Positions 30,409 through 64,000 of a stretch of DNA of 64,000 bases are shown in pieces. Within the stretch, counting starts at the first letter, position 1; each line of letters begins with the position of its first letter. The notes under the pieces were generated by a model. It saw nothing but the letters and a program-made list of their open reading frames with translations. It ran no database searches and was not told the DNA's origin. The translations under genes and the position numbers were made by a program. Origin of the DNA: a virus. Its lineage: Duplodnaviria > Heunggongvirae > Uroviricota > Caudoviricetes. Location: positions 104,585-168,584 of IMG/VR virus record IMGVR_UViG_3300009500_000011, one strand, 5' to 3'.

Positions 30409-30420
30409 AATAATCACAAA

Positions 30421-45456: not shown

Positions 45457-45464
45457 TTTTATTT

Positions 45465-45498: not shown

Positions 45499-45519
45499 GT
45501 TGTCATAAAGGAAAAAAGA

Positions 45520-50124: not shown

Positions 50125-50155
50125 ATTAAATCTTTCTTGAAGAAGAGAAAAATAA

Positions 50156-50284
50156 ATGCACATTATAAAAACTTACTCACCTTATCATGTTGCTTGTACA
50201 TGTAATCATCCTAAATATAAACATATTGAAGGAGCAAAATGTGTAAAAGCAGAATGTAATTGTGAGTCATTTAACCGTAAGTAA
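50156..50284 (+). CDS. candidate 42-aa Cys/His-rich peptide
   Basis: Lies between tRNA-His and tRNA-Gly; C.C..H...H...C...C.C pattern. Confidence 0.25.
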   Translation: MHIIKTYSPYHVACTCNHPKYKHIEGAKCVKAECNCESFNRK

Positions 50285-50291
50285 AATTTTT

Positions 50292-50369
50292 GCGAGTATG
50301 GTGTTTAACGGTTCAGCATGGGTGCCTTCCAAGCATTTGGTGCCGGTTCAAATCCGGCTACTCGCTCCA
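50292..50369 (+). tRNA. tRNA-Gly(TCC)
   Basis: Acceptor GCGAGTA/TACTCGC, arm GGTGC-CTTCCAA-GCATT, T arm GCCGG-TTCAAAT-CCGGC, CCA. Confidence 0.85.
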
Positions 50370-51670: not shown

Positions 51671-52426
51671 ATGCGCGCTCTTGGTTTAAAATCTTTAGTA
51701 GACCCACGTAGGGACCAATATCCAAAATTAATTTTAAAAGATGGTCCAATTCCTTCAAAAGTTGAATATGCTCCTTTATATCCTCCGGTTGATGACCAAG
51801 GAAATTTTGGTACATGTGTTGCATTTGGAACCGGCAAAGTCTTTGAATACTTTTATAATAAGCAGAACAACAAACAACTTTTAATTTCAAAACGTGCCCT
51901 TTTTTCAGAAATTAAACAAAATTTTTACCCTCATGATACTCAAGATGATGGTGCCCAAGTTTCTGATGGATTACAAATATTATCTTTAAATTACATCTTA
52001 GAATCTGATTTTCCTTATGAACCGGCTGGAGATTTTAGTCAGTTTTTACATGGGGTTCCAGCAAATCTTGAAAAAACAGATTTTAAAATAAAACATTTTG
52101 TATCGGTAAATCCCGTCATTGATGATATGAAAAATGCATTATTTCATCAAGGCCCTTTAGCTATCGGAACATCCTTTGCAAACGAATGGATGGAGATTGG
52201 TAGTGATGGTCGTTTACCTGGTTCTAATCTTACATCTGCTGGTGGACATTGCATGTCTATTACCGGATATGATGATGACTTTGTAAATCTAGATGGTTCA
52301 AAAGGTGCTTTCCATTATATTAACAATTGGTCAACTGCTTGGGGCCAAGAAGGATATGCTTGGTTGCCATATAACGTTGATACAGACTTTTTTCCAACCG
52401 ACCTTTTTACAGTTCAAGTTCAATAA
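51671..52426 (+). CDS. papain-like cysteine peptidase (C1 family)
   Basis: QGNFGTCVAFG (Gln/Cys), GGHCMSITGYDD (His), NNWSTAWGQEGYAW (Asn/Trp). Complete catalytic signature. Confidence 0.85.
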   Translation: MRALGLKSLVDPRRDQYPKLILKDGPIPSKVEYAPLYPPVDDQGNFGTCVAFGTGKVFEYFYNKQNNKQLLISKRALFSEIKQNFYPHDTQDDGAQVSDGLQILSLNYILESDFPYEPAGDFSQFLHGVPANLEKTDFKIKHFVSVNPVIDDMKNALFHQGPLAIGTSFANEWMEIGSDGRLPGSNLTSAGGHCMSITGYDDDFVNLDGSKGAFHYINNWSTAWGQEGYAWLPYNVDTDFFPTDLFTVQVQ

Positions 52427-52437
52427 TAATCAAACTG

Positions 52438-52466
52438 TTGACAAAACAGAGGAAATTGATTATACT
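52438..52466 (+). promoter_or_regulatory. sigma70-type promoter for the tmRNA transcript
   Basis: TTGACA-17 nt-TATACT. Confidence 0.6.
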
Positions 52467-52471
52467 ATAGA

Positions 52472-52602
52472 TATGGTCGTAAGAGACTAGTCGCGGTCTG
52501 AAAAAAAGCCGCCTTGCGTTGACCCTCTTATCACGCCCGTAAACTCGGGACTTAGTAAGTCCTTCCAGAACAAGTCTAATAAACACTCTGGAAGGCAAAC
52601 TT
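52472..52602 (+). ncRNA. structured 5' leader or co-transcribed RNA upstream of the tmRNA
   Basis: Lies between the predicted TSS and the tmRNA 5' end. 9-bp hairpin CCTTCCAGA/TCTGGAAGG and hairpin GGACTT/AAGTCC. Confidence 0.35.
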
Positions 52603-53054
52603 GGGATATAGCAGTTTTGACTGGAAAACCAAGGGCTATAAGACAAGCAGTAGAGCATTAGGCTACTATAAAAAATGCAAACAAACAATCGCAGACTTTT
52701 CTGTAACTGGGTTCAACGACTTCATCGCTCGCGAAGCGGTCGCTGCCTAAAACCTCTCTAGGCTCGTAGAGTAATACGGGCTAAGGGAAACATAGTTTCC
52801 CTACCTTATCCGTGGGGCCACACGGAAGGTTCGATTCACGTTTCAGAGGTTACTACTCTGTAGCACCATAAACGAGAATATTACCCTTATGAATAAGGGC
52901 GACCGGAGGGCTAGGTCGTAAATGGCGCTCATTGTAGGCTGAAATTTCCTACAAAACCAAGTCCTGGTTGAGGGAATAAATATCAGGAAGCTTGTATAAT
53001 CAAATAGTTCGAAGATTCTAGGACTCGGGGGGCGGCTCCCCGAATATTCCACCA
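52603..53054 (+). ncRNA. ssrA: tmRNA (SsrA) candidate, one-piece
   Basis: 5' GGGATAT pairs with 3' ATATTCC-ACCA and gives G3-U70. H-type pseudoknot AGTAG-a-GCATT-agg-CTACT-ataaaa-AATGC at 52649-52678. Then a 12-nt A-rich spacer ending ATC and resume codon GCA at 52691. The tag frame reads ADFSVTGFNDFIAREAVAA, with stop TAA at 52748-52750 in hairpin GCCTA/TAGGC. GGAC precedes the T stem TCGGG/CCCGA. Own promoter and terminator. Confidence 0.75.
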
Positions 53055-53063
53055 AATAATAAT

Positions 53064-53095
53064 AAACCTTCAATGTAAAAGTTGAAGGTTTATTT
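53064..53095 (+). terminator. intrinsic terminator after the tmRNA
   Basis: AAACCTTCAA...TTGAAGGTTT followed by ATTT. Confidence 0.6.
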
Positions 53096-53096
53096 A

Positions 53097-53125
53097 TTGA
53101 CATTCTTAGGTAATTCTGATATAAT
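53097..53125 (+). promoter_or_regulatory. sigma70-type promoter
   Basis: TTGACA-17 nt-TATAAT (full consensus). Confidence 0.65.
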
Positions 53126-53131
53126 ATTGAT

Positions 53132-53335
53132 ATGTACCCAATGAATATTCAAGTAATTTATAAAGATATTCCTGGTTTTAAAGGAATGGGTCGCGTTGTC
53201 GGTGTTGCATCTTATGCTTTTCCTGGAATGGGCTGCATGTATATTGTTGAAGACTTAGATGGTAATATTCCGACCAAAGAATATCCTTATAAAACTTTTA
53301 TTGTTCAAGAATCTTTATTACATTTTTGTACTTAA
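53132..53335 (+). CDS. hypothetical protein
   Basis: ORF behind the consensus promoter at 53097-53125. Confidence 0.4.
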   Translation: MYPMNIQVIYKDIPGFKGMGRVVGVASYAFPGMGCMYIVEDLDGNIPTKEYPYKTFIVQESLLHFCT

Positions 53336-53340
53336 TAAAA

Positions 53341-53538
53341 ATGACAGTTAAAGAATTAATTTTGGGATTATCTAAATTTGACGAAAATTTTACTATTGTT
53401 ACCAGGACTGGAAAATATTATTTAGCAGATAAAGTAACAACCGTTGAAGATGGATGGTTTGATGAAGAAAATATGATTTTTTATATTGAATCTTCATTTA
53501 AAGACATAAATATTAAAAACGCTGTATTAATAGAGTGA
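53341..53538 (+). CDS. hypothetical protein
   Basis: ORF 53326..53538 trimmed to ATG (MTVKEL). Confidence 0.4.
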   Translation: MTVKELILGLSKFDENFTIVTRTGKYYLADKVTTVEDGWFDEENMIFYIESSFKDINIKNAVLIE

Positions 53539-53624
53539 TGGGTGAATTGGTCAAACCACCTTCCTGCTAAGAAGGCGCGACCCCTCAAAAGGTCTTCCGG
53601 GTTCGAGTCCCGGTCACTCTGCCA
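53532..53624 (+). tRNA. tRNA-Ser(GCT), type II
   Basis: Acceptor AGAGTGA/TCACTCT, arm CCTTC-CTGCTAA-GAAGG, long variable arm GACC...GGTC, T arm CCGGG-TTCGAGT-CCCGG, G73, CCA. Confidence 0.85.
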
Positions 53625-53646
53625 ATTTAAATCTAAGAAAATTATA

Positions 53647-53868
53647 ATGCGAAATATAAATGATTCTGTTGCAATTATAGCTTATTCTCAAGATGATTAT
53701 ATTATTGTTACATCTGGAAGAATAGTAGGTATAAAAATCCATGTTACTAAACCTGATTTATATAATGTTCTTAGTATAGATGGCAACATTTATAGTGTAT
53801 CAGATGATAAAATTTTTGATTCTTTTGAATCTGCTTTAGAAATAGCCAAATCAAAACCAAATTTATAA
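53647..53868 (+). CDS. hypothetical protein
   Basis: ORF 53542..53868 trimmed; its first 35 codons are the tRNA-Ser gene. Confidence 0.4.
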   Translation: MRNINDSVAIIAYSQDDYIIVTSGRIVGIKIHVTKPDLYNVLSIDGNIYSVSDDKIFDSFESALEIAKSKPNL

Positions 53869-54287
53869 TGTCTTATAAATTATTAAAAATTATACCTGGG
53901 GCTTCAAAAGGCATAAAATTATTTAGAACAAGTAAATTTAATCGTGATGGTATGCCTAAAATAAAGCCCAAATCTAGCAAATATAGGTCTTCTATGTTTG
54001 CTTCTTATTTTATAGAACATACCCGTTGTGCTTTTAAAGGTCATGTTCCTAAACCTTCGGGTCGCAAAAATCATTTGCCAACATGTAAATATTGTTATCA
54101 TATTTTGCCTGAATATGGATACGGTTATGGATGGACAAAAGAATTAGAAATTTCTATATATGGTGAAAAGGATTGTCGTCGGTATTGTGAGAATTGCACA
54201 TCAGGTTATTATTTAAAGCCAGATTCGATTAAATGTAATAACTATTTTTGCGGTAAAGAAAGAAAATATATTATTAATCATGCATAA
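53868..54287 (+). CDS. hypothetical Cys-rich basic protein
   Basis: Intact ORF in the tiling. Confidence 0.4.
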   Translation: MSYKLLKIIPGASKGIKLFRTSKFNRDGMPKIKPKSSKYRSSMFASYFIEHTRCAFKGHVPKPSGRKNHLPTCKYCYHILPEYGYGYGWTKELEISIYGEKDCRRYCENCTSGYYLKPDSIKCNNYFCGKERKYIINHA

Positions 54288-54567
54288 ATATGCTGTTTTC
54301 CATCAAAATTATAATGAAAAATATGATAAACGTTTGATTGCAGTAGTTGAAATTGCAGAAGGTGTTAATCCTCATGCTGCTCATATGTATGGGCAATCAT
54401 TTTTAAATGACCCTGAGCATTATTATACCATTGTCGAAAGATATGAAGAACCAAAGGTTGTATTGATAACAGAAAAAGTTCTTCAAGCAAGATTGTCTAT
54501 AATAGAAAAGCAACGTGAAATTGCTGAAAGACAAAAAGAAATTAATAAGTTATTAAAGGTTGGATAA
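54280..54567 (+). CDS. hypothetical protein
   Basis: Intact ORF in the tiling. Confidence 0.4.
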   Translation: MHKYAVFHQNYNEKYDKRLIAVVEIAEGVNPHAAHMYGQSFLNDPEHYYTIVERYEEPKVVLITEKVLQARLSIIEKQREIAERQKEINKLLKVG

Positions 54568-54881
54568 TGAAACCAGCAAATAAACCATGTTCAAAAGAGT
54601 ATTGTTTTAAAGAGGCAAAAGAATTTGAAGATGCTTTAATTGAAGATGGCATGGTTGTCACACGAACAAAACCTAAACTTTTTAAGTGTGGCAAATGTGG
54701 TATTCTTGTTTGTGCCTACCATTCGACGGCATTAGTTATGTTTAGGGATGAACATGGAAATCGAAAACAAATTGCGTATAAACCAGCAATTTGTCGTCGT
54801 TGTTCTTGGTTAGAAGATAATGCTGGTTTACATGGTAGACCCGCAGGTTGGATTGCAACGAGAGTCCCTATTCCTTGGTAA
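54567..54881 (+). CDS. hypothetical Cys-rich protein
   Basis: CGKCG...CRRC motifs. Confidence 0.4.
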   Translation: MKPANKPCSKEYCFKEAKEFEDALIEDGMVVTRTKPKLFKCGKCGILVCAYHSTALVMFRDEHGNRKQIAYKPAICRRCSWLEDNAGLHGRPAGWIATRVPIPW

Positions 54882-54924
54882 TAATCAAAATAATAATTGA
54901 CAACACTAGAAAAGAAAGTAAGAT

Positions 54925-55179
54925 ATGAACATGGATACTAAATCACAGAATTCGGAAGAAACAAAAATTGTAGGTCGTACTGCTTTAGTTACTGGCAAAA
55001 TTGGCCCAGACACACTTGGTCAAGTTACTGTTGCTATACGTGAAGGCACAGATACATATTCTGCGCGTTCGGCTCATCCTGACGAAGTAATATCTGTTGG
55101 TTCTGAAGTTGTAATTTCAAAGTTTTTTCCTCCACGGACTGTTTTAGTTTCAAAAACTACTACTTCTACGAAAGAATAA
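54925..55179 (+). CDS. NfeD-like OB-fold protein
   Basis: G.TALVTG.I....G.V.V......Y.A.S......G..V.I pattern of the NfeD C-terminal domain. Sits immediately upstream of an SPFH gene, as in bacterial nfeD-floT operons. Confidence 0.5.
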   Translation: MNMDTKSQNSEETKIVGRTALVTGKIGPDTLGQVTVAIREGTDTYSARSAHPDEVISVGSEVVISKFFPPRTVLVSKTTTSTKE

Positions 55180-55185
55180 TAAATC

Positions 55186-56619
55186 TTGACTAGTTTACTT
55201 ATGACATATGGAATTCCGGTAGGTATCGGATTATTAGCATTATTTTTCATCGTTGGACTTCTTCGTTCAATGTATAAAGTCGCAGAACCGAATGAAGCTT
55301 TAATTATTTCAGGTTTTGGGGCAGGCAAAAAAGGTTCTGACTTAGATTTCAAATCAGTTGCTGGCGGTGGCACATTTGTAATTCCTGGCCTTCAAATTGT
55401 GCGTAAACTTTCTTTAGAAGCCCGTACTGCTAAATTGGTTACAAGTTGTGTTTCTAAGCAGGGTATTGGTGTATCTATTGAAGGTGTTTGTATGTACAAA
55501 ATTGGTGATAGCGCACAATCTATTGCCAACGCTGCACGACGTTTTCTAGGTCAACCAGATGACTTAATTGATAGCAATATTCAAACAGTTCTTGACGGTC
55601 ATCTTCGTTCAATTATCAGTAATTTAACGATTGAAGAAATTCTTCAAAATCGTGAAAAACTTACTGGTGAGACAAGAAGTGCTGCTGATGATGAACTTGC
55701 ACAGATGGGTCTAGTTATTAACTCGCTTCAAATCATTAGTATCAAAGATTCTAGTAATTATGTTGCAAGCATGGCTGCTCCTCATGTTGCAGAAGTTCAA
55801 AAGAATGCTCGTATTGCACAGGCTGCTGCTGAACAAGCAGCAACAATTGCTGAACAAGAGGCTGCTGCTCAAAAGGCCGCTGCTACTAGAGATTCAGAAG
55901 TCAAACAGGCTGCATATTTAGCAGAGATTGAATCTGCGAAAGCAACAGCAGCACAACAAGGCCCTCTAGCGGCTGCTAAAGCGCAACAAGCCGTTATGGT
56001 TGAACAAACTAAAATGACGGAACTTGAAGCTAATCGTAAAGAACAAGAACTTCAAGTTAGTGTTCGTCGTCCTGCTGATGCAGAAGCCTATGCTGTTACA
56101 GTTAAGGCAAATGCTCAAAAGGTTGCTACGATTGCTGCTGCTGAAGCAAATGCACAACAAACTAAACTTGAAGCTGAATCTCGCGCTGCCGCAGCTAGGG
56201 TTCTTGGTGAAGGTGAAGCAGAGGCTACAAAGGCCCGTGGTGCTGGTGAAGCTGCTGCTATTGAAGCCAAAGGTCTTGCTGAAGGTAAAGCAATTCAAGC
56301 GCGTGTACTTGCCGAAGCCGAAGGTATTGCCGCTAGTGGTAAAGCATTCGCTGAAAATAAAGAATCTGTTATTCAAAAGATTCTTGCAGAACATATGCCT
56401 GAAATTGTTAAAGAAGCTGCACAACCATTTGCTGCAATTAAAAACTTCATGGTTCTTGATGGTGCCCAAGGTGTAAATCGTACACTTACCGGAATCATCG
56501 GTGTGGGTGCAACCTTGCTTCCACAAATCATGCAGACTTTTAAAGATGGTGCAGAGGTTGTTAAGAATCAAGTATCACTCACGAATTCTGGAACAGACTC
56601 TGAAAAACCCAAGAAGTAA
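55186..56619 (+). CDS. flotillin-like SPFH (band 7) protein
   Basis: N-terminal TM helix, YKVAEPNEALIISG start of the SPFH domain, long Ala/Glu/Gln-rich flotillin coiled coil. TTG start (alternative ATG at 55201). Confidence 0.85.
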   Translation: MTSLLMTYGIPVGIGLLALFFIVGLLRSMYKVAEPNEALIISGFGAGKKGSDLDFKSVAGGGTFVIPGLQIVRKLSLEARTAKLVTSCVSKQGIGVSIEGVCMYKIGDSAQSIANAARRFLGQPDDLIDSNIQTVLDGHLRSIISNLTIEEILQNREKLTGETRSAADDELAQMGLVINSLQIISIKDSSNYVASMAAPHVAEVQKNARIAQAAAEQAATIAEQEAAAQKAAATRDSEVKQAAYLAEIESAKATAAQQGPLAAAKAQQAVMVEQTKMTELEANRKEQELQVSVRRPADAEAYAVTVKANAQKVATIAAAEANAQQTKLEAESRAAAARVLGEGEAEATKARGAGEAAAIEAKGLAEGKAIQARVLAEAEGIAASGKAFAENKESVIQKILAEHMPEIVKEAAQPFAAIKNFMVLDGAQGVNRTLTGIIGVGATLLPQIMQTFKDGAEVVKNQVSLTNSGTDSEKPKK

Positions 56620-56690
56620 GTAATTTACTACAATCACATAGCAGGTAGATTAATCTCTACCTGCTATGTTTATTTAAAAGGTTCATATAT

Positions 56691-56993
56691 ATGTTAAGCG
56701 AAGAATTTAAAGAAAAAAGATTTAAAGAAAACACATCATTAGATAAAGACCGCATTCTATATTCAGGTGCTTTATATGATGATGTTAGAGCGGCAATATA
56801 TGCTGTAGTTCGTCAATGGCGCGCTTCACATAATAATTTTGGTAAAAATTCTACAATGAAACATGTAGATGAAATTATGACTATGCCTGAAGTAATTCGA
56901 TTATATGACCCATTTTATACAACAAAAAGTTGGTTTAATTATACAGGTTGCACCTGTCGCGGTGATTGCTGCGAAAATCATGAAGAGGAATAA
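56691..56993 (+). CDS. hypothetical protein
   Basis: Intact ORF in the tiling. Confidence 0.4.
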   Translation: MLSEEFKEKRFKENTSLDKDRILYSGALYDDVRAAIYAVVRQWRASHNNFGKNSTMKHVDEIMTMPEVIRLYDPFYTTKSWFNYTGCTCRGDCCENHEEE

Positions 56994-57000
56994 TAAAAAA

Positions 57001-57228
57001 ATGCCGTTTTACAAATTTCGTTGCTCAAATTTTGAATGTAGTTATAACCAAAAAGATTTAAAACCATTAGTATTTGAATTAAATATGTCAATGACAAATT
57101 ATTCTCAATTATCTAAAGATAGTATCACCGGGAATCCAATGGTAAAATGTCCAGAATGTTCTTATGATGCTATTAGAGTATTTGAAGCCCCAGCAGTTCA
57201 TACAGAAACGGGAGTTAAATCAAGATAA
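57001..57228 (+). CDS. FmdB-family zinc-ribbon protein
   Basis: Trimmed to MPFYKFRC..FEC...CPEC, the canonical FmdB N-terminus (MP.YEYRC..C). Confidence 0.55.
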   Translation: MPFYKFRCSNFECSYNQKDLKPLVFELNMSMTNYSQLSKDSITGNPMVKCPECSYDAIRVFEAPAVHTETGVKSR

Positions 57229-57443
57229 TGAATCAAAAAGTTTACCAACCTAGAAAAGAAGATAGAAGAAAATCTTCAAGACGCGAAGCTGATGATAAAG
57301 TTATGGTAACCTTTGAACTTGATAGAGAAGTTTATTTCGAAGTTTTAAAAATTTGTATTGAGACAAAACAAACCTTTGAAGAATTTGTTGTCAAAGCGGT
57401 AAAAGAACAATTAGAAAGAATTAAAAATTCGGATGTTGGGTAG
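57228..57443 (+). CDS. possible ribbon-helix-helix (CopG-like) protein
   Basis: Basic N-terminus, then beta-strand VMVTFELD and two short helices. By-eye call only. Confidence 0.35.
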   Translation: MNQKVYQPRKEDRRKSSRREADDKVMVTFELDREVYFEVLKICIETKQTFEEFVVKAVKEQLERIKNSDVG

Positions 57444-57681
57444 ACAACAATCTTTGTACAATTCTTGTAAAATTAATTTTAATACTTTAAAACAAAATGT
57501 TAAAATTTTGTTGGGTGATAATAAAAAAGTTTTAGATGCCTTACAAGTTGTTGAATTAGAACTAATTAAAGTCAATCCTTATTGTAAAATAACTTCAATT
57601 AAAAATGTTACAGAAGAAGAAAACAATTCTCCTGTTCTAGAAAAAGAGAATACTACTGATGAAAGCAAAACAAGCAATTAA
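57433..57681 (+). CDS. hypothetical protein
   Basis: Intact ORF overlapping both neighbours by a few codons. Confidence 0.35.
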   Translation: MLGRQQSLYNSCKINFNTLKQNVKILLGDNKKVLDALQVVELELIKVNPYCKITSIKNVTEEENNSPVLEKENTTDESKTSN

Positions 57682-57853
57682 AATGCTAAAAAACATAGGA
57701 TTTGATATAGAGCGTATGGGAAAAGGTGACCATATATTATTGCGGAGTCCTGATAATAAAAGAATTGTTCTGCAAAATGGTGCATTAGAATTATCTCCAG
57801 GTTTGACAGGTAAAGTTAGAAGTCTTTTGCAAAAAGGTAAGTTAAATGAGTGA
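57659..57853 (+). CDS. HicA-like mRNA interferase toxin
   Basis: 64 aa. K..IK.L...GF.....GKGDH......D......L.....L..G pattern of the YcfA/HicA family. Confidence 0.55.
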   Translation: MKAKQAIKMLKNIGFDIERMGKGDHILLRSPDNKRIVLQNGALELSPGLTGKVRSLLQKGKLNE

Positions 57854-58106
57854 CCATTATACTTATTCCTATGATTCTCCTCCTTTTTGTTATAAATGTA
57901 AAACATTACATAATAATAATCTAATTTGTGATGTTCTTAAAGAAGAATATCTTAAAAAAAGTTTAGAACCCGAAAGATTTATAAAAGTCCACGAAGAAAA
58001 ACGCTGGATTGATTCGACTAATTTCCGAATAATAGAATATTTCAATCTTTTGCCTAAAAAAATTTATGGAAATTGGGCTAAACCAATATTGTTGACAAAA
58101 CAATAA
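57846..58106 (+). CDS. hypothetical protein
   Basis: ATGAGTGA overlap with the HicA-like gene. Contains the promoter for tRNA-Val in its 3' end. Confidence 0.4.
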   Translation: MSDHYTYSYDSPPFCYKCKTLHNNNLICDVLKEEYLKKSLEPERFIKVHEEKRWIDSTNFRIIEYFNLLPKKIYGNWAKPILLTKQ

Positions 58107-58120
58107 AATTGTGCTATTAT
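58092..58120 (+). promoter_or_regulatory. sigma70-type promoter for tRNA-Val(TAC)
   Basis: TTGACA-17 nt-TATTAT, 10 nt upstream of the tRNA 5' end. Confidence 0.6.
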
Positions 58121-58130
58121 AAAAGTATAT

Positions 58131-58213
58131 CGGCGGGTTCCCGTAGCGGCGAACGGTCTGCTTTTACATGGCAGCATACCACATCGTGGGTTCGAGTCCC
58201 ACCCTGCCGACCA
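58131..58213 (+). tRNA. tRNA-Val(TAC) with 11-nt variable loop
   Basis: Acceptor CGGCGGG/CCTGCCG, arm CTGCT-TTTACAT-GGCAG, variable CATACCACATC, T arm GTGGG-TTCGAGT-CCCAC, CCA. Promoter at 58092-58120. Confidence 0.7.
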
Positions 58214-58230
58214 CTTTAGCAGAGAAACAA

Positions 58231-58560
58231 ATGGCAAAAGTAACAAAAAAATTAGAGCATTGCCCTGATTGTTATGTTAAGATAAATGAACGCCATCATA
58301 AAGGCTGTGACATTGAAAGATGTACGGTTTGTGGCGGTCAAAGACTTGTTTGCGGTTGTAAAGGTCATAAGCCTTGGAGTGCTGTTTGGACCGGATTTTG
58401 GCCCGGTGTAATTGAATGTCAAGTTTTAGGATGGTATTCAAAATTTATTCCGAATTATGGTTGGCGTCAAACTACCCAAGATGACCCAGATGGAATGGAA
58501 GATTTAAACCGATGGGTTATCTATAACATGGAAGTTCATCAGTTGACAAATCTTTCCTAA
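58231..58560 (+). CDS. hypothetical Cys/His-rich protein
   Basis: ORF 58168..58560 trimmed to ATG (MAKVTKK); the first 21 codons are tRNA-Val. CPDC...CTVCGG...CGC. Confidence 0.4.
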   Translation: MAKVTKKLEHCPDCYVKINERHHKGCDIERCTVCGGQRLVCGCKGHKPWSAVWTGFWPGVIECQVLGWYSKFIPNYGWRQTTQDDPDGMEDLNRWVIYNMEVHQLTNLS

Positions 58561-58571
58561 TTTAGTATCAT
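58543..58571 (+). promoter_or_regulatory. sigma70-type promoter for the leader plus tRNA-Arg
   Basis: TTGACA-17 nt-TATCAT. Confidence 0.55.
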
Positions 58572-58577
58572 ATAATT

Positions 58578-58680
58578 GTAAGCACCAAGCGGGTAAGAGA
58601 ATGAATGTAAGAAGTTCTCTCTTCGTAGTGCAATTCCGTGGTTCTTGTCGTCTTAAACCGAACGGCGCTTTTTCGGTTAA
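58578..58680 (+). ncRNA. structured leader RNA upstream of tRNA-Arg(ACG)
   Basis: Lies after promoter 58543-58571. Hairpins AAGAGAA/TTCTCTT, GCAC/GTGC and AACCGAA/TTCGGTT. No ORF. Confidence 0.35.
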
Positions 58681-58685
58681 AATAT

Positions 58686-58776
58686 CTCGGTGTGGTGTAA
58701 CTGGATAGCACAAAACGCTACGAACGTTTAGGGAGCCGCAAGGCCATTGGGGGTTCGAATCCCTCCATCGAGGCCA
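58686..58776 (+). tRNA. tRNA-Arg(ACG) on a type II (long variable arm) scaffold
   Basis: Acceptor CTCGGTG/CATCGAG, perfect arm AAACG-CTACGAA-CGTTT, 19-nt variable region with GCC-GCAA-GGC hairpin, T arm GGGGG-TTCGAAT-CCCTC, CCA. 91 nt. Confidence 0.65.
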
Positions 58777-59009
58777 ATTAAAAAATTCCTTCTAGTAAAG
58801 AAGGGTAAGAGCATGAGTTAGGCGGGTAAACTGTACTATGCCAGGCCAAGGTAGTGGCAGCACAAATCTACTGTAGAGCAAGAGTCGAACAGTTTACATA
58901 AGAACACCTAGCAAACTGGGAGAGTTGAGGCCCAGGGATGCCGCCGAACATTCACTCTGTACAATTCGGCATTCAAAATTTCAAACTGCAAATTGAGTGC
59001 AGTATTTAA
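58777..59009 (+). ncRNA. structured non-coding region downstream of tRNA-Arg(ACG)
   Basis: Nested long-range pairings GGCGG/CCGCC and GTAAACTGT/ACAGTTTAC. Hairpins GCCGAA/TTCGGC and CTGCA/TGCAG. Shares a GGGTAAGAG box with the upstream leader. No ORF. Confidence 0.35.
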
Positions 59010-59294
59010 TTGAAACATTATAGATATCAAAGTCAAGAAGATGGTTACTGTCTTTCAAAAGAAGAATGGTGCTATCTTTGGTCATTAGAAGATGATTATT
59101 TAGGTCCAAATTGGACTCATGAAGATAGTTGGGAAGTTTATTTTGATGAAAGGTTGAATAACAAAAGCTTTATATCTATTGAAGATGAACAACATTCATG
59201 CAATAGATATAAAGGACAAACAATTCAACAAATAGAAGAAGAAATGATTCACTACTTTGAAAAAATTGAAGGAATGAAAAAAATTTCAAAGTAA
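59010..59294 (+). CDS. hypothetical protein
   Basis: TTG start; intact ORF. Confidence 0.4.
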   Translation: MKHYRYQSQEDGYCLSKEEWCYLWSLEDDYLGPNWTHEDSWEVYFDERLNNKSFISIEDEQHSCNRYKGQTIQQIEEEMIHYFEKIEGMKKISK

Positions 59295-59383
59295 GACTTG
59301 TCTTTTCCACAACAATGATATATAATGCTACAAGTGTGGATTTTCCACATAATTTGATTAAAGAAGAAAGGAACTTATCGAAA

Positions 59384-59467
59384 ATGCAAACTGCTAATAA
59401 CGTTGCAATGGCCCCGGTTGTTGTCGTTCCCGCACCTCAAGGTGTGTTAGTTAGTTATGCCCGATAA
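59384..59467 (+). CDS. candidate 27-aa micro-ORF
   Basis: Promoter-like TTGTCT-17-TATAAT at 59298-59326, RBS AAGAAAGGA. Peptide MQTANNVAMAPVVVVPAPQGVLVSYAR. Strong terminator at 59497-59525. Confidence 0.25.
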   Translation: MQTANNVAMAPVVVVPAPQGVLVSYAR

Positions 59468-59496
59468 GTAACCTTAAGGTCTAAAAAAGAATTTAG

Positions 59497-59525
59497 AACC
59501 CCTGGTGAAAACCGGGGGTTTTTTG
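59497..59525 (+). terminator. intrinsic terminator
   Basis: AACCCCTGG-tgaaaa-CCGGGGGTT followed by TTTT. Confidence 0.65.
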
Positions 59526-59626
59526 TATAATCGGGGGTAGGCAAGCGGTGAGCCATCTGGCCTGGACTCATTGTTATTAATCCAAATCAATTGAGTATTT
59601 CTCCTTTAGAAGGAGATTATTCAAAA

Positions 59627-60082
59627 ATGAAAACTTGTTTAAACTGCAAACAAATTAAAGACGAATCTTTATTTAGATGGAAAAATAAATCCAAGGGTTG
59701 GAAAAAAGCTAATTGTATAGAATGTGATAAAGTCTACGATAGAAAATATCATCAAAATCGACCATTAGAAAAGAAAAAAAATAAATTAATTTTAAGTAAA
59801 AAAAGAATAGACGATATAACAGAAAAAATTTGTTTACTTTTATTAAATAAAAAATGTATTGATTGTGGTCAATCTGATATTAGAGCTTTAGATTTTGACC
59901 ATCAAGAAAATAAAACTAATAATATTGGTAATCTTACTAGTATTAAATGGAGTTGGGAAAGAGTTCAAGAAGAAATCGAAAAATGTGTAGTTAGATGTGC
60001 TAATTGTCATAGAATTAAAACTCATAAAGAGAGAAAAACACGAAAATATTTATTTGGTTTAAAATATAATCTCTGGGAGTAA
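59627..60082 (+). CDS. HNH homing-type endonuclease (paralog 3 of 3)
   Basis: Trimmed to the ATG after RBS AAGGAGA. CLNC...CIEC ribbon, LDFDHQEN, CANCHRIKTH. The last 10 nt overlap tRNA-Pro. Confidence 0.7.
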   Translation: MKTCLNCKQIKDESLFRWKNKSKGWKKANCIECDKVYDRKYHQNRPLEKKKNKLILSKKRIDDITEKICLLLLNKKCIDCGQSDIRALDFDHQENKTNNIGNLTSIKWSWERVQEEIEKCVVRCANCHRIKTHKERKTRKYLFGLKYNLWE

Positions 60083-60147
60083 CTCAAAAGTAGAGTGCTA
60101 TGTTTGGAACATAGAAGTTGGGATGGCAGAATTCCCCTCTCAGACCA
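60073..60147 (+). tRNA. tRNA-Pro(TGG)
   Basis: C1-G72 acceptor CTGGGAG/CTCTCAG, D arm ACTC/GAGT, arm CTATG-TTTGGAA-CATAG, A73, CCA. T arm GGGAT-GGCAGAA-TTCCC (non-canonical). The 5' end overlaps the HNH stop codon. Confidence 0.65.
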
Positions 60148-60167
60148 ATCTTTTAGAAAGAAGAGAC

Positions 60168-60515
60168 ATGGGACTGTTTAGAAAAATATCTACGGCCACT
60201 TTACCATCAAATAACGCTGTAATGAAAAGTTATTTGGTAGATACAAAAAATCCAAATCCCTATAAGTATAAAATTTTAAAAACAGAACAATTAGGTGAAT
60301 ATTTGATTGTCAAAATTAATTATCCTAATTGTGAAAATTACGAAGGAAATAAAATTTTAGTTTATAAAAATACTACAATAGATAAATTAGTATCAGGAAA
60401 ATATATAGACCCGCATTTTTTTGATAATAAAATTTACAATTCTCCAATTGCTAGATTTCGACCAACCAAAGAAGGTTGGAATATGGCAATTAATTTTGTA
60501 AAAGGTTTAAAATAA
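60168..60515 (+). CDS. hypothetical protein
   Basis: ORF 60123..60515 trimmed to MGLFRK because its first 25 nt (60123-60147) overlap tRNA-Pro; the first Met after the tRNA was chosen. Confidence 0.4.
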   Translation: MGLFRKISTATLPSNNAVMKSYLVDTKNPNPYKYKILKTEQLGEYLIVKINYPNCENYEGNKILVYKNTTIDKLVSGKYIDPHFFDNKIYNSPIARFRPTKEGWNMAINFVKGLK

Positions 60516-60519
60516 ATAT

Positions 60520-60593
60520 AGCGGAGTGGTGAAATGGTATCATGCGTGGTTTGGGACCATGTGGCGAGGGTTCGATTCCCTCCTCTGCTACCA
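60520..60593 (+). tRNA. tRNA-Pro(TGG), second copy
   Basis: Acceptor AGCGGAG/CTCTGCT, arm CGTGG-TTTGGGA-CCATG (G37), T arm GAGGG-TTCGATT-CCCTC, CCA. Confidence 0.8.
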
Positions 60594-60597
60594 ATTT

Positions 60598-60672
60598 CCC
60601 CGGTTAGTTCAGCGGGAGAACGCCACATTGACATTGTGGAGGTGGTAGGTTCGACACCTACACCGGGGACCA
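60598..60672 (+). tRNA. tRNA-Val(GAC)
   Basis: Acceptor CCCCGGT/ACCGGGG, arm CCACA-TTGACAT-TGTGG, T arm GTAGG-TTCGACA-CCTAC, CCA. Confidence 0.85.
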
Positions 60673-60792
60673 ACAAACTTAAAGAAGTTGCGCTCAATCC
60701 GACGCTACAAGGTCGCTCCTTGTATCTTGTATAGAGAATATCGGAGTGCGAGACGTTTTCGGTTCACTACGAGTAAGAAGGGAACCGTTTAA

Positions 60793-60867
60793 GGGGAACT
60801 AGTGCTAATGGTAACACGACTCGCTTGCACCGAGTAATTCAGAGTTCGATTCTCTGGTTCTCCACCA
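60793..60867 (+). tRNA. tRNA-Ala(TGC)
   Basis: Acceptor GGGGAAC/GTTCTCC with G3-U70. Arm ACTCG-CTTGCAC-CGAGT, T arm CAGAG-TTCGATT-CTCTG, A73, CCA. Confidence 0.9.
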
Positions 60868-60891
60868 AATTTATTCAAGGTAAATAGTAGT

Positions 60892-61110
60892 ATGTCATTT
60901 AGAAAATTTGTATTTGAAAGAAGTGAAGATGTAAGCGGAGTATCAGGAATCGGTATTGTTGCTGAAGGCGTAGAATTTTCAAATGGTAAAACAGTAATTG
61001 CTTGGTGCGTTCCTGGAAAACCAAATTCAGCAGTTATATACGATAATATACACGAAGCAATAGAAGTACATGGTCACGAAGGCCGAACAGTAATAAAATG
61101 GATAGATTAA
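60892..61110 (+). CDS. hypothetical protein
   Basis: Intact ORF after tRNA-Ala. Confidence 0.4.
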   Translation: MSFRKFVFERSEDVSGVSGIGIVAEGVEFSNGKTVIAWCVPGKPNSAVIYDNIHEAIEVHGHEGRTVIKWID

Positions 61111-61111
61111 G

Positions 61112-61513
61112 ATGGATGAATTTGAAGAAATTATTGATGTTTTAGTCCGAAAAATTGAACTATCTGATGATAGATATGTTTTGGTTATAAATGGTAAATA
61201 TCAATTAGTAGTTGATGCAGATTGTTGCTCTGAAACATGGATTGAACATATTATTGGTGTAAAACAATTATTAGGTTCAAAAATAAGAAGTGTAAAAAGA
61301 TTAGAATTTCCATCTGAATATATTGAATGCTTGACGAAAGCAGAACCATCTGCCGACTATACACAATATTATGGATTAGCTATAACTTCTAGAAATGGGC
61401 AAATGATTATTGATTTTCGTAATCGGAGCAATGGTTATTATGGTGGAAGTATTCAGTTGCTTATTAGCGAAAAAATTCCTTCAAATTTAAGATTGATAAC
61501 CGAGGATGAATAA
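61112..61513 (+). CDS. hypothetical protein
   Basis: Intact ORF in the tiling. Confidence 0.4.
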   Translation: MDEFEEIIDVLVRKIELSDDRYVLVINGKYQLVVDADCCSETWIEHIIGVKQLLGSKIRSVKRLEFPSEYIECLTKAEPSADYTQYYGLAITSRNGQMIIDFRNRSNGYYGGSIQLLISEKIPSNLRLITEDE

Positions 61514-61515
61514 TA

Positions 61516-61716
61516 ATGTTCTGCGGTAAAAAACCAACTCAAGATGAAATAATGAAAATCAAAGAGTTTGCTGCTTTCTTAAGAAATATAAATTCTATCG
61601 AAAAAGATGAGAACTTGACAAAAGAAGAAAAAAAAGATAAACTAAACGAAATTATAGCGCAAGCAAATAATAAAATACAAAAAGAATGGGAAAATGGCAG
61701 AAAAAAACGACGATAA
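61516..61716 (+). CDS. hypothetical lysine-rich protein
   Basis: Intact ORF in the tiling. Confidence 0.4.
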   Translation: MFCGKKPTQDEIMKIKEFAAFLRNINSIEKDENLTKEEKKDKLNEIIAQANNKIQKEWENGRKKRR

Positions 61717-61924
61717 GTTTGAACTAAAAGGTTTTGTACTTAAATCACATCCCGGAGCAACTTTTTCAGTTCGATTAGAAGGAATAGAAAAAGATGTTCT
61801 TTGTCATCTTTCTGGGAAAATGCGAATGAATAATATTCGTGTTCTAGAAGGTGATACTGTGGATGTTGAAATGGATGTATATGATTTATCTAGGGGTAAA
61901 ATCATATTTAGGTATAAGAAATAG
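61694..61924 (+). CDS. infA: translation initiation factor IF-1 homologue
   Basis: 76 aa, colinear with bacterial IF-1: G.V........F.V.LE.......H.SGKMR.N.IR.L.GD.V.VE...YDLS.G.I.FR. Confidence 0.9.
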   Translation: MAEKNDDKFELKGFVLKSHPGATFSVRLEGIEKDVLCHLSGKMRMNNIRVLEGDTVDVEMDVYDLSRGKIIFRYKK

Positions 61925-62089
61925 ATGGTCGATAGACTATTACATTTTCTTCAAAATAAATATGTTCCCGCACTATGGGCAGTTTTATTAACAGTATGGT
62001 TAATTGGTGCTATAATTGATACAACTCCCAAAGTATATAATGTAATAAATTTAATAAATAAACAAATAAAGGTCAATCATCATGTTTGA
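61925..62089 (+). CDS. candidate 54-aa membrane peptide
   Basis: TM-like ALWAVLLTVWLIGAII. ATGTTTGA overlap with the next gene. Confidence 0.3.
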   Translation: MVDRLLHFLQNKYVPALWAVLLTVWLIGAIIDTTPKVYNVINLINKQIKVNHHV

Positions 62090-62360
62090 AATTGAATTTG
62101 TTGGTGGATATCATGATGGAAGAATTGAAAAGGTTGCTAAAACAAATCCTACAAAAACATTAACAATTAGCCAAAAAATGTCTACGAATGATTTAACTGG
62201 AGAAATTAAATCTCTTGTAAGCAGCTACAAATTAGATAGGAAAACTGAAGGTGTAAATGGTTTTCCACGCATTATTTATATAATTGATGCAGAAATTATA
62301 GAAACATCATTGATGCAAGATTTAATTAAAAATACAAGACACCTTCCAGAAGGATTATAA
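62082..62360 (+). CDS. hypothetical protein
   Basis: Intact ORF in the tiling. Confidence 0.4.
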   Translation: MFEIEFVGGYHDGRIEKVAKTNPTKTLTISQKMSTNDLTGEIKSLVSSYKLDRKTEGVNGFPRIIYIIDAEIIETSLMQDLIKNTRHLPEGL

Positions 62361-62361
62361 A

Positions 62362-62562
62362 ATGGCAGAAAAAGTTCAAAGTGATTCAACTATGTTTTTT
62401 AATTCGCGAGAAGATTCTGAAAAATTAATTAAAGAAGTTAAACATATTTCGACTACTAAGGTTCAAATTCCATTGCATGATGAATTACAAAAATTGATAT
62501 CCCATTCTGTTGGGATACCTCCTGAAGTAATGAATATTGACAAAACTAAAGAAAAAGAGTAG
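62362..62562 (+). CDS. hypothetical protein
   Basis: Intact ORF in the tiling. Confidence 0.4.
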   Translation: MAEKVQSDSTMFFNSREDSEKLIKEVKHISTTKVQIPLHDELQKLISHSVGIPPEVMNIDKTKEKE

Positions 62563-62577
62563 TATATAAATAAATAT

Positions 62578-62652
62578 GGGGTTATCATATAGTGGCTATT
62601 ATGACGGTTTTGCAAATCGTTCACCTCAGTTCGACTCTGAGTAGCTCCACCA
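62578..62652 (+). tRNA. tRNA-Ala(TGC), second copy
   Basis: Acceptor GGGGTTA/TAGCTCC with G3-U70. Arm ACGGT-TTTGCAA-ATCGT, T arm CTCAG-TTCGACT-CTGAG, A73, CCA. Confidence 0.85.
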
Positions 62653-62662
62653 AACAAAAATT

Positions 62663-62863
62663 ATGGAACATAATGATATAGACCAAAAAACAGTTCATGC
62701 TCTTGTATATAAATTTGCAAATGATTTAAATGCATTATTTGGCTGTGAAACAACTTTTAAAATTTCTAAAATGCCCCATGCAAAATATGGAATGGCTATG
62801 GAAATAAAGGTTCATCCACATTATCCAGTTAATGAAATAAACATTGATTTAACAATAAATTAA
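62663..62863 (+). CDS. hypothetical protein
   Basis: Intact ORF between two tRNAs. Confidence 0.4.
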   Translation: MEHNDIDQKTVHALVYKFANDLNALFGCETTFKISKMPHAKYGMAMEIKVHPHYPVNEINIDLTIN

Positions 62864-62868
62864 AATAT

Positions 62869-62944
62869 GGCTCTATCGTATAGCGGTTTATTATAGGGGT
62901 TTCATAAGCCTTTGACGAAAGTTCGACTCTTTCTAGAGCCTCCA
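62869..62944 (+). tRNA. tRNA with CAT anticodon (Met or Ile2)
   Basis: Acceptor GGCTCTA/TAGAGCC, arm GGGGT-TTCATAA-GCCTT (G-U rich), T arm GAAAG-TTCGACT-CTTTC, CCA. Confidence 0.75.
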
Positions 62945-62969
62945 AAATTCTTACTTTTAAGGAAATCCT

Positions 62970-63194
62970 GTGCAAGTAAACAAGAACGGTATTCCCATTG
63001 CCGGTTTTCGGGTTAAAAATATACCTGCTAGTTGCAGGAATAAAAGCCGTCAAACTGGCATGAAGAAAAGTTTTCAAACTCAAGCCAGCGCACAAAAATG
63101 GCTTGATAAAAAATTTCATGTAGATTTTATAGGAATGGAGCCTTATCCTTGTAGCATACATGGTTGGCATGTAGGCCATTCTATACGTAATTGA
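62970..63194 (+). CDS. hypothetical protein, paralog of 51287..51637
   Basis: GTG start. KKSFQTQASAQKWLDKKF...YPCSIHGWH motif is shared with 51287..51637. Preferred over the antisense 199-aa ORF. Confidence 0.4.
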   Translation: MQVNKNGIPIAGFRVKNIPASCRNKSRQTGMKKSFQTQASAQKWLDKKFHVDFIGMEPYPCSIHGWHVGHSIRN

Positions 63195-63225
63195 TTTTTC
63201 TTGTGCATTCTGGTACAATTTGTGT

Positions 63226-63738
63226 ATGAAAATTACTGATAAATACGTTTTGTTTTTTGGGCCAGAAGATTGTCCTTCCCAATGGTATCCTGTAAAGTTC
63301 AAAACTAGATTATTCGATTTTGAAAATTTAGAATTTAATTGTAGTGAACAATTCATGATGGCTGCAAAAGCATTATTCTTTGATGACAAAGAATCATTTG
63401 TTAAAATCATGAATACGTCTAGCCCCAATCAACAAAAATCTTTAGGTCGAAATGTTCAAGGTTTTGATAAAGATAAATGGAATGCTGTTTGCCGACCTTT
63501 AGTGACAGTTGGCAATATGGCTAAATTTACTCAAAATGATGATTTAAAGCAGTTTATGTTAGACAATGAGGGGAAAATTTTTGTTGAGGCTTCTCCTTAT
63601 GACGATATTTGGGGTGTTAAACTTGGGGCCAACGACCCTAGAATTTTAGACCCTTCTAAATGGAGAGGGACTAATTGGCTTGGAGAAATTTTGACTAGAA
63701 TTAATATTATAATTTGCAAAAAGGAGAAGTCAAAATGA
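63226..63738 (+). CDS. NADAR (YbiA-like) domain protein
   Basis: SEQFMMAAKA, SP...K.LGR, W......V...N.AKF.QN..L...L......VEASP.D.IWG, G.N.LGE.L motifs of the YbiA/NADAR family. Confidence 0.8.
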   Translation: MKITDKYVLFFGPEDCPSQWYPVKFKTRLFDFENLEFNCSEQFMMAAKALFFDDKESFVKIMNTSSPNQQKSLGRNVQGFDKDKWNAVCRPLVTVGNMAKFTQNDDLKQFMLDNEGKIFVEASPYDDIWGVKLGANDPRILDPSKWRGTNWLGEILTRINIIICKKEKSK

Positions 63739-64000
63739 GTATTTGGGAACCTTTCACGGAAAGAGCTAGACGTTCAATTGTTTTAGCCCAAGAAGAATCT
63801 CAACGTCTTGGTAGGGATTATATTGGAACCGAACATATTTTGCTTGGTATAATTTCTGAAAATGCATCTTTTGCAGCAGAAACATTAATCAATGAAGGTT
63901 TAAATCTTCAATCTGTGAGAGGAGAAGTTGAAGCAATTGTAGGTAGAGGTCAAAGAGCAAACAACAATGAAATGGTGTTTACTCCTCGTTCTAAAAAAGT
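63735..64000 (+). CDS. ClpC/ClpB-type chaperone, N-terminal Clp_N domain (partial, runs off the window)
   Basis: ATGA overlap with the NADAR gene. FTERARRSIVLAQEESQRLGRDYIGTEHILLGII...VRGEVEAIVGRGQ...FTPRSKK is colinear with the ClpC N-terminus. Not in the ORF track because it is open-ended. Confidence 0.85.
   Translation, partial: MSIWEPFTERARRSIVLAQEESQRLGRDYIGTEHILLGIISENASFAAETLINEGLNLQSVRGEVEAIVGRGQRANNNEMVFTPRSKK

Follow-up and report, generated by a model that had tools for sequence, protein, structure and literature searches.

Does a stretch of DNA from an uncultivated virus of the Caudoviricetes encode a working translation initiation factor IF-1, and where would such a protein depart from its bacterial counterpart? 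The stretch in question, referred to throughout as the window, comprises 64,000 nucleotides (positions 104,585 to 168,584 of IMG/VR virus record IMGVR_UViG_3300009500_000011) and carries an infA-like gene. Our analysis indicates that this gene probably encodes a functional IF-1, carried by an uncultivated jumbo phage whose genome spans at least 275 kb; in this protein the residues facing the decoding centre are kept and the loop that enters helix 44 of 16S rRNA is rewritten. IF-1 in very large phages has been known since 2018, and the present gene is a divergent further example.

61694..61924, + strand: infA-like gene for a 76-aa IF-1 homolog, with ATG start and TAG stop (from the ORF listing and the sequence)

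The gene product belongs to the bacterial IF-1 family

The 76-codon open reading frame (ORF) is translated as MAEKNDDKFELKGFVLKSHPGATFSVRLEGIEKDVLCHLSGKMRMNNIRVLEGDTVDVEMDVYDLSRGKIIFRYKK and contains the motif HLSGKMRMNNIRVLEGDTVDVE...YDLSRGKIIFR, quoted in the original prediction, which had described the product as colinear with bacterial InfA. Profile and sequence searches confirmed this colinearity. TIGR00008, the infA equivalog of NCBIfam, matched with 82.8 bits against a cutoff of 61.15 (E 1.2e-23; residues 6-74 on profile positions 2-69 of 69), and PF01176, the Pfam eIF-1a/IF-1 family, matched with 67.4 bits against a cutoff of 30.2 (E 8.8e-19; residues 11-73 on positions 3-64 of 64). 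In addition, 12 distinct solved bacterial IF-1 sequences in the PDB were matched at E values of 1e-18 to 6e-13, with query residues 6-75 falling on approximately residues 4-72 of the chains. The protein also matched phrog_30201, a PHROG family whose function is unlabelled, at E 8.8e-19 over residues 6-75. A public family without a functional label therefore already groups IF-1-like proteins of phages, and our assignment would label it as IF-1. The net charge of +1 and pI of 7.9 lie inside the bacterial IF-1 range and were not used as evidence.

Related OB-fold families were considered and rejected. A generic S1 or cold-shock OB domain, named in the original prediction as the assignment that would speak against IF-1, did not emerge from the Pfam scan: the S1 model PF00575 reached 14.1 bits (cutoff 22) and the TOTE S1/CSD-like model 13.6 (cutoff 27), and a cold-shock domain model was absent from the matches at E<=1. 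The archaeal and eukaryotic factors aIF1A/eIF1A were set aside on profile scores far under their cutoffs (TIGR00523, 15.7 bits against 102.9; NF003082, 13.8 against 108), on the length of only 76 aa, and on the ranking of eIF1A structures below all bacterial IF-1s in the structural search described next. They have in common with the phage protein a homologous OB fold and bind the same A-site pocket, but the phage protein is without their extra helical domain and tails. The N-terminal OB domain of RsgA/YjeQ was likewise rejected, PF16745 scoring 18.3 against 27 and the ORF ending after the OB fold, without a GTPase domain.

Structure prediction gave the same assignment. The AlphaFold2 model, built on a shallow alignment of 5 sequences, is of moderate confidence, with a mean predicted local distance difference test score (pLDDT) of 76.4 and a predicted template-modelling score (pTM) of 0.60; it has the topology of IF-1, with five strands (residues 8-19, 23-28, 34-39, 55-61 and 67-71) and one short helix (41-45). 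In a Foldseek search against the PDB, the first 14 matches were all bacterial IF-1 (template-modelling score, TM, 0.69-0.85), including the ribosome-bound factors 1HR0_W (TM 0.85/0.90, root-mean-square deviation 1.3 A) and 9FCO_I (TM 0.83/0.90). The eIF1A/aIF1A structures came next in the list (TM about 0.7-0.76), followed by the RsgA OB domain.

Decoding-centre contacts are kept and the helix-44 loop is rewritten

Residue numbers were matched to alignment columns through what we take to be the E. coli (Met1-counted) and Thermus thermophilus IF-1 sequences. Column statistics refer to the 150 nearest IF-1 sequences. The numbers themselves are those of the T. thermophilus contact list (bioRxiv 10.1101/2023.10.27.564398), in which G1494 of 16S rRNA is contacted by Ala16 and Pro18, A1493 by Ala20 and Arg46, G1410 by Arg23, A1492 by Arg41 and C1411 by Arg64, ribosomal protein uS12 by Tyr60 and Asp61, and the 530 loop by residue 35, Gly38, Lys39, Met42 and Arg66; Pro18, Arg23, Arg41 and Arg46 are described there as conserved in IF-1. 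A further report has G530 contacted by Lys39 and Met42, A1492/A1493 by Arg41 and Arg46, and uS12 faced by His35, Tyr60, Arg64 and Arg66 (PMC10913371).

Eleven of these contacts are retained in the phage protein, namely Pro18, Ala20, His35, Gly38, Lys39, Arg41, Met42, Arg46, Tyr60, Asp61 and Arg64, and the set directed at the decoding centre, the 530 loop and uS12 carries the common bacterial residue throughout, except for Arg66, which is replaced by Lys. Arg70 is retained as well, and we take it to be the essential C-terminal Arg69 of E. coli numbering, the two being equated through the E. coli sequence. That the C-terminal Arg69 of IF-1 is essential has been reported (PMC4611024); the literature searched yielded no mutant data on the IF-1 arginines, and a 2026 preprint on IF1/IF2 offered no contacts of IF-1 at the level of residues. 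Changes fall in the following parts of the gene:

61748..61768, + strand: beta1-beta2 loop, codons 19-25, HPGATFS; the bacterial loop, LPN[AT]xF[RK], enters the helix-44 minor groove of 16S rRNA
61784..61786, + strand: inserted Ile at codon 31 in the beta2-beta3 turn, EGIEKD against ENG-HE, with Lys in place of the usual His30
61811..61840, + strand: beta3-beta4 loop with the short helix, codons 40-49, SGKMRMNNIR; Gly38, Lys39, Arg41, Met42 and Arg46 retained, Tyr44 is Asn

The beta1-beta2 loop differs from the bacterial form by L17H, N19G and R23S, with Pro18, Ala20 and Phe22 kept. Among the nearest IF-1s, Leu17 is present in 133/150, Asn19 in 131/150 and Arg or Lys at position 23 in 133/150, while Ser at position 23 occurs in 0/150. 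Nor is Ser found at this column in any of the 18 other viral IF-1s retrieved, all of which have a basic residue or Glu there. The other retrieved viral IF-1s keep a canonical LPNxxFR-type loop, which argues that the remodelling is specific to the present lineage. An Arg two residues on, at position 25 and on the same strand face (FSVRL against FRVEL), may replace the phosphate contact of the lost Arg23, and the remodelling as a whole may tune affinity or kinetics.

The inserted residue of the beta2-beta3 turn occupies a column that is a gap in 132/150 of the nearest IF-1s, with His at the next column but one in 117/150. The longer turn is found in other viral IF-1s on IMG/VR contigs (L007, L015, L019 and L023-L026), and we also observed a turn longer by one residue in P0012, P0014 and P0019 (e.g., EGIERP, DNIEKE, DGWENP). 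Asn at the bacterial Tyr/Phe44 column recurs in many viral IF-1s, including that of the cultured phage Phosso. Both observations, on the turn and on Asn, are affected in part by ascertainment bias from the search patterns. An 'NNI' signature of viral IF-1s was considered and is not claimed, since GKMRMNNI was itself one of the search patterns.

Compared with bacterial IF-1 (InfA; TIGR00008, PF01176; 1AH9, 1HR0), the phage protein is of similar size (76 aa against 71-72) and shares the single OB fold, in which strands 3 and 4 are separated by a short helix. The bacterial factor differs in its LPNxxFR loop, in the absence of the additional turn residue, in His30, Tyr44, Pro59 and Arg66, and in having its gene in or near a ribosomal-protein operon.

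The gene is conserved between strains and composed like its genome

Among the loci compared, L004 (sample SRR5829579) has the same sequence as the window, and L001, L002, L003, L005 and L006 represent a sister strain with about 90% DNA identity to the window over 60891-62867. Between the two strains infA differs by 8 synonymous and 0 non-synonymous changes, giving a synonymous divergence (dS) of 0.19 and a non-synonymous divergence (dN) of 0, against dN/dS values of 0.06 to 0.73 for neighbouring small ORFs in the same comparison. With 48 synonymous and 180 non-synonymous sites, the chance that 8 neutral changes would all be synonymous is approximately 4e-6, which argues that the IF-1 protein is under purifying selection. 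The gene matches its surroundings in composition, with a GC content of 32.5% and 19.5% at third codon positions (GC3), against 32.5% and 17.3% for the other genes. Selection together with matched composition points to a gene that is selectively maintained and has long been resident in the phage genome. An identical IF-1 protein is encoded on 8 contigs from several independent samples, with SRR5829579, ERR10755936, SRR27973230 and ERR11571142 as source samples. The longest contig, ENA ERZ25039479 contig_29692, has 274,834 bp. The neighbours of infA are all small same-strand ORFs, with NAMPT and an NMNAT-like gene downstream. Two of these neighbours adjoin the gene directly:

61516..61716, + strand: 66-aa Lys-rich ORF upstream, whose 3' end overlaps the infA start by 23 bases
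61925..62089, + strand: 54-aa ORF downstream, whose ATG directly follows the infA TAG (TAGATG)

Neither ORF matched a Pfam family (for the upstream ORF, none above cutoff), and the upstream one shows a dN/dS of 0.73 between the two strains. The TAGATG junction suggests that infA and the 54-aa ORF are co-transcribed and translationally coupled. A scan for promoters and terminators around infA was uninformative in this AT-rich DNA.

The protein forms a long branch among IF-1s

An exhaustive HMMER search of 1.84 billion representatives returned 5,463 homologs, of which none exceeded about 60% identity or 80 bits. Among 185,579 species genomes, the best matches had 48-57% identity and were scattered over unrelated phyla and groups (Actinomycetota, SAR324, Chloroflexota, Brachyspira, Betaproteobacteria and Bacillota); no cellular IF-1 was more than 58% identical. 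In a trimmed alignment of 70 columns the query showed 53% mean identity to 73 bacterial IF-1s, which average 74% among themselves, so that the phage IF-1 is a long branch. For scale, the IF-1 of C. difficile shares 64-80% identity with seven IF-1s of other phyla (PMC10913371).

Neighbour joining (NJ) on about 70 informative columns placed the cellular infA of locus L027 as sister to the query in 96/200 bootstraps and viral sequences in few. The organism of L027 is itself divergent, its ribosomal proteins being about 50-55% identical to all others compared. We rejected it as a host or donor in view of the 48% bootstrap value, this divergence and possible long-branch attraction.

Relation to other phage IF-1s

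Genes for IF-1 in very large phages are already on record. Lak megaphages were reported in 2018 to carry 'translation initiation factors (e.g., IF1)' together with sigma factors, tRNA-His guanylyltransferase and CCA addition (bioRxiv 10.1101/356790); IF1 was then described in huge phages generally, along with the hypothesis that translation is redirected (Al-Shayeb 2020, PMC7162821), as well as in soil huge phages (PMC11748809), and the conserved gene core of Jug phages contains a 'translation initiation factor 1A' (PMC12880540). Lak and other huge phages have in common with the present phage an IF-1 on a genome of >200 kb, many tRNAs and a sigma factor, and the Lak repertoire also shares the tRNA-His guanylyltransferase and a nucleotidyltransferase possibly adding CCA. 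The Lak IF-1 has 43.7% identity to the present protein, and the LPN/FR-type loop is canonical in the Lak and IMG/VR proteins but not here.

Twenty viral contigs of IMG/VR carry IF-1, with up to 62% identity (on a contig of 354,809 bp); a group of 395.6-kb contigs (L011-L014) encodes proteins of 45-46% identity. Apart from a few scattered enzymes, no gene neighbourhood is shared with these 20 loci. A tblastn search detected IF-1 homologs in 35 deposited phage records. Gp175 of Sinorhizobium phage Phosso (PV764938.1), annotated 'translation initiation factor IF-1', is 47% identical and, like the present protein, has Asn at the Tyr44 column, with different neighbours. DAC19_4 of Bacteroides phage DAC19, a 'hypothetical protein' from a 101-aa gene call in a 179-kb phage, is 47.5% identical over 80% of the query and also has other neighbours. 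Both are cultured phages in which the IF-1 homolog lies among small hypothetical genes and tRNAs, and in the Bacteroides DAC/SJC phages the homolog is annotated as hypothetical. The best tblastn 'phage' matches (OR844994 and Listeria and Enterococcus records) are unannotated; they probably represent host DNA in phage-labelled assemblies and should not count as phage IF-1. OR844994.1 (L114) is marked UNVERIFIED_ORG, and its IF-1 is a typical Bacillota-type sequence. Overall, several of the 35 records are fragmentary or unverified and may stem from the host.

Genomic context of the window

The window very probably belongs to a jumbo phage. Its Pfam and PHROG content, which is of the kind usual in jumbo phages, includes DNA primase, class I ribonucleotide reductase, T4-type RNA ligase, Ro60/TROVE, AAA/BCS1-like ATPases, a Thg1-like tRNA-His guanylyltransferase (phrog_4717, 2e-84), PhoH, dNMP kinase, phosphoesterases, a nucleotidyltransferase, endonuclease VII, RNase H and, in 3 ORFs, HNH endonucleases. 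Strong matches to phage families were obtained for phrog_7485 (1e-99), phrog_4717 (2e-84) and phrog_850 (2e-46). Over 62 further ORFs, just 10 Pfam families were detected at E<=1e-4, each in one ORF. No ribosomal protein or rRNA was found in the 64 kb, and IF-3, IF-2, S21, S1 and other translation-factor families were not detected among the other ORFs of the window. In the cell providing the nearest word-index match, infA stands in the order secY-adk-map-infA-rpsM-rpsK-rpsD-rpoA, whereas the phage infA has phage ORFs and tRNAs around it. In the 64 kb we identified no gene for capsid, portal or terminase and one weak 'head protein' PHROG match (1.2e-7), and megablast of 52000-64000 against 50,697 phage records found no match, which leaves the phage without a close cultured relative. 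The phage assignment, although strong, is therefore contextual and rests on gene content. The primase has only 28% matches among deposited phages, from which no clade can be assigned. Further features of the window and of the sister strain are as follows:

11631-16095, 25588-26253, 29683-32001 and 45439-47205: RNA repair and tRNA maturation set, with T4 Rnl1-type RNA ligase, Thg1-like protein and PhoH-like ATPase
37311-40886 and 41543-44878, + strand: ORFs of 1191 aa and 1111 aa, very large orphans
63220-63738: NADAR-domain protein (6e-43), downstream of infA
60892-61110: 72-aa protein, PF26761 Acb5 in precomputed annotation; our own Pfam scan did not find Acb5
55186-56619, + strand: 477-aa protein with SPFH/Band-7 and flotillin domains, of membrane-scaffold type and unusual for a phage
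7562-8038, + strand: small sigma-70 region-2 protein, phrog_351 RNA polymerase sigma factor
Among 17713-29401: at least 3 HNH homing-endonuclease ORFs (batch PHROG scan, families only)
L002 1-605 and 5880-7073 (ERZ25039472 contig_52515), sister strain: two IS605 OrfB/TnpB (Cas12f-like) genes

The RNA repair set further includes two phosphoesterases, a nucleotidyltransferase (possibly CCA-adding) and a Ro60/TROVE protein with a vWA domain. Neither of the two large orphans matched any Pfam, PHROG or PDB sequence, or any deposited phage by tblastn; relatives of the 1191-aa ORF occur on two IMG/VR viral contigs, with 39-43% identity over residues ~131-419. The NADAR protein and the 72-aa protein, which flank infA, are candidate NAD and counter-defence genes, and the sister strain carries NAMPT and an NMNAT-like cytidylyltransferase just past the window end (L001 15323-18555). 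These NAD genes resemble NAD+ salvage modules that are reported for gut jumbo phages (PMC11662467). The OrfB/TnpB family had no match among the window ORFs scanned, and its presence in one strain variant suggests that transposon insertions are strain-variable in this phage genome.

tRNAs, a tmRNA-like RNA and start-codon usage

The original prediction had linked IF-1 to tRNAs, a tmRNA and CAT-anticodon tRNAs, and proposed that the phage modulates initiation in favour of its own frequent TTG and GTG starts. The window contains these RNA genes:

16876-28000, 50048-50369, 53532-53624, 58131-58776, 60520-60867 and 62578-62944, + strand: tRNA genes in arrays
52603-53054, + strand: tmRNA-like RNA (RF00023, 45.7 bits against a gathering cutoff of 47, E 6.1e-15, model positions 1-374 of 374)
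62869-62944, + strand: tRNA with anticodon CAT (ARAGORN; Rfam tRNA 52.5 bits), about 950 bases downstream of infA

The tRNA genes are amply present: ARAGORN called 32, all on the + strand and several duplicated (Tyr x2, Asn x2, Gln x3, Ala x2, Thr x3, Leu x4). We observed unusually long type-I tRNAs (Thr of 83 nt at 23092, Lys of 85 nt at 25104, Val of 83 nt at 58131 and Arg of 91 nt at 58686) and a 4-base anticodon call on the tRNA at 18948-19021, which may represent insertions, introns or a frameshift-suppressor-like tRNA. The tmRNA is plausible, as its match covers the full RF00023 model, yet borderline, lying 1.3 bits under the gathering cutoff and receiving no ARAGORN call, relaxed settings included. 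By eye, its 5' GGGAUAU pairs with 3' AUAUUCC-ACCA, and a possible tag frame reads A-D-F-S-V-T-G-F-N-D-F-I-A-R-E-A-V-A-A-stop.

The CAT-anticodon tRNA proved to be single rather than plural. Its acceptor stem, GGCUCUA/UAGAGCC, gives a paired G1:C72, and its anticodon stem (G-U, G-U, G-C, G-C, U-G) holds just two G:C pairs; these features argue for an elongator-type or tRNA-Ile2-type molecule and not a bacterial initiator. Start codons likewise turned out to be ordinary, contrary to the proposed abundance of TTG and GTG. Over the 42 gene calls of the sister-strain locus, 36 begin with ATG, 5 with GTG and 1 with TTG (86% ATG), and the TTG and GTG starts of the mechanical ORF list are largely a longest-ORF artefact; NADAR, for example, is called from ATG 63226 and not from TTG 63220. 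A partial Shine-Dalgarno-like motif precedes about half of the called starts, and about half have no obvious one. Start-codon discrimination is mainly the task of IF-3. With ordinary start usage, a CAT tRNA that is not of the initiator type and no IF-3 found among the other ORFs of the window, the idea that the phage favours its own non-ATG starts is unsupported.

Weighing the explanations

That the gene is a phage-encoded IF-1, as first proposed, is borne out by the equivalog cutoff, the fold, the contact residues, purifying selection and phage-type surroundings, and we regard a functional factor as the probable explanation. The protein, a single small OB-fold domain, would most likely dock at the A site of the host's 30S subunit, in the pocket formed by helix 44, the 530 loop and uS12, where it would keep A1492 and A1493 flipped out and stop tRNA from entering too early. 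In cooperation with the host's IF-2 and IF-3 it would help the 30S initiation complex to form, acting alongside the phage tRNAs, the tmRNA-like RNA and the tRNA-repair and maturation enzymes. We infer ribosome binding, this cooperation, the timing of expression and the benefit to the phage, most likely a phage-controlled supply of a stoichiometric factor during shutdown of host expression or degradation of host mRNA. Several points weigh against this explanation. The conserved Arg23, with its contact to G1410 in helix 44, is lost, and Leu17, Asn19, His30, Tyr44 (to Asn) and Pro59 (to Val) are also replaced, so normal IF-1 activity is not guaranteed. Identity to solved bacterial IF-1s is only 44-55%, an unusual divergence, and the structural model is of moderate confidence. 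Capsid, portal and terminase genes were not identified in the window. Homolog and genome searches and NJ gave no close relative from which a donor or host could be inferred, and the literature searched yielded no experiments on any phage IF-1.

The replacements could instead mark a specialised or competitive variant that sits in the same A-site pocket but, through changes in its helix-44 loop and beta2-beta3 turn, alters the 30S response (helix-44 distortion, cooperation with IF-3 and IF-2, or subunit-joining kinetics), thereby biasing initiation to phage messages or escaping a host mechanism directed at IF-1 or the A site. The changes do cluster in the helix-44 loop (with a Ser seen in none of the 150 nearest IF-1s), are accompanied by the inserted residue and His30 to Lys, and both strains show them fixed under strict purifying selection; compared with bacterial IF-1s the branch is long, an obvious Shine-Dalgarno-like motif is missing upstream of about half of the called genes, and redirection has been proposed for huge phages generally (PMC7162821). 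Sequence does not, however, show altered specificity, most contact residues are unchanged, the canonical LPNxxFR of other viral IF-1s means that the remodelling is no general adaptation of phages, start codons are used in the ordinary way, and the partner factors IF-3, S21 and S1 were not found in the window; we consider such a variant unlikely. A role outside initiation, in which the protein would mainly bind or chaperone RNA, whether phage transcripts or the many phage tRNAs, as cold-shock proteins do, would draw on the OB fold common to IF-1, cold-shock and S1 domains, on surroundings rich in tRNA genes and RNA-repair enzymes, and on the loss of the Arg23 ribosome contact. E. coli IF-1 also has reported RNA-chaperone activity. 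Such a role is nonetheless very doubtful: the S1 score is below threshold and no cold-shock model appeared, the best structural matches are ribosome-bound IF-1s, and the residues for A1492/A1493, the 530 loop and uS12, needless for a generic RNA binder, are specifically retained.

Two further explanations concern where the gene belongs. A reduced bacterial genome or a very large plasmid with a cellular infA would fit the lack of identified capsid, portal and terminase genes and of a nucleotide match among phage records, and tRNAs, tmRNA and infA occur in tiny symbiont genomes too. It is highly improbable in view of an infA that is not beside map, rpmJ and rpsM as in cells, the lack of any ribosomal protein or rRNA found in 64 kb, tRNA arrays bearing duplicates, HNH endonucleases, best family matches to phage families, the T4-type RNA ligase, Ro60, NADAR and the Acb5-like protein, the predominance of small one-strand orphan ORFs, and the recurrence of the element at about 90% identity in several independent metagenomes. 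Phages sporadically pick up host genes, and the absence of synteny with other viral IF-1 loci would suit a recently captured passenger without function for the phage; the purely synonymous differences between strains and the fully phage-like base composition make this barely credible, and the distant cellular matches, scattered over many phyla, imply that capture was not recent.

Implications

The functional phage IF-1 that we favour establishes no new category, as both IF1 in huge phages and the redirection idea were published in 2018-2020 (bioRxiv 10.1101/356790; PMC7162821). It adds to the translation genes of very large phages a documented case that is strongly constrained yet highly divergent and recurs in several metagenomes, and only the remodelled helix-44 loop under strict purifying selection goes beyond the literature. 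It is rather improbable that the remodelled loop and the extended beta2-beta3 turn make the protein a specialised A-site factor, one that would change 30S conformation, IF-3/IF-2 cooperation or subunit joining to prefer phage mRNAs, many of which have no clear Shine-Dalgarno sequence, or that would make initiation insensitive when a defence or toxin of the host acts there. As a natural variant in which the decoding-centre contacts are kept and the helix-44 loop is rewritten, the protein could help to decide between a top-up of the host factor and a re-tuned initiation, and it is a reasonable choice as the first phage IF-1 to be put to a functional test.

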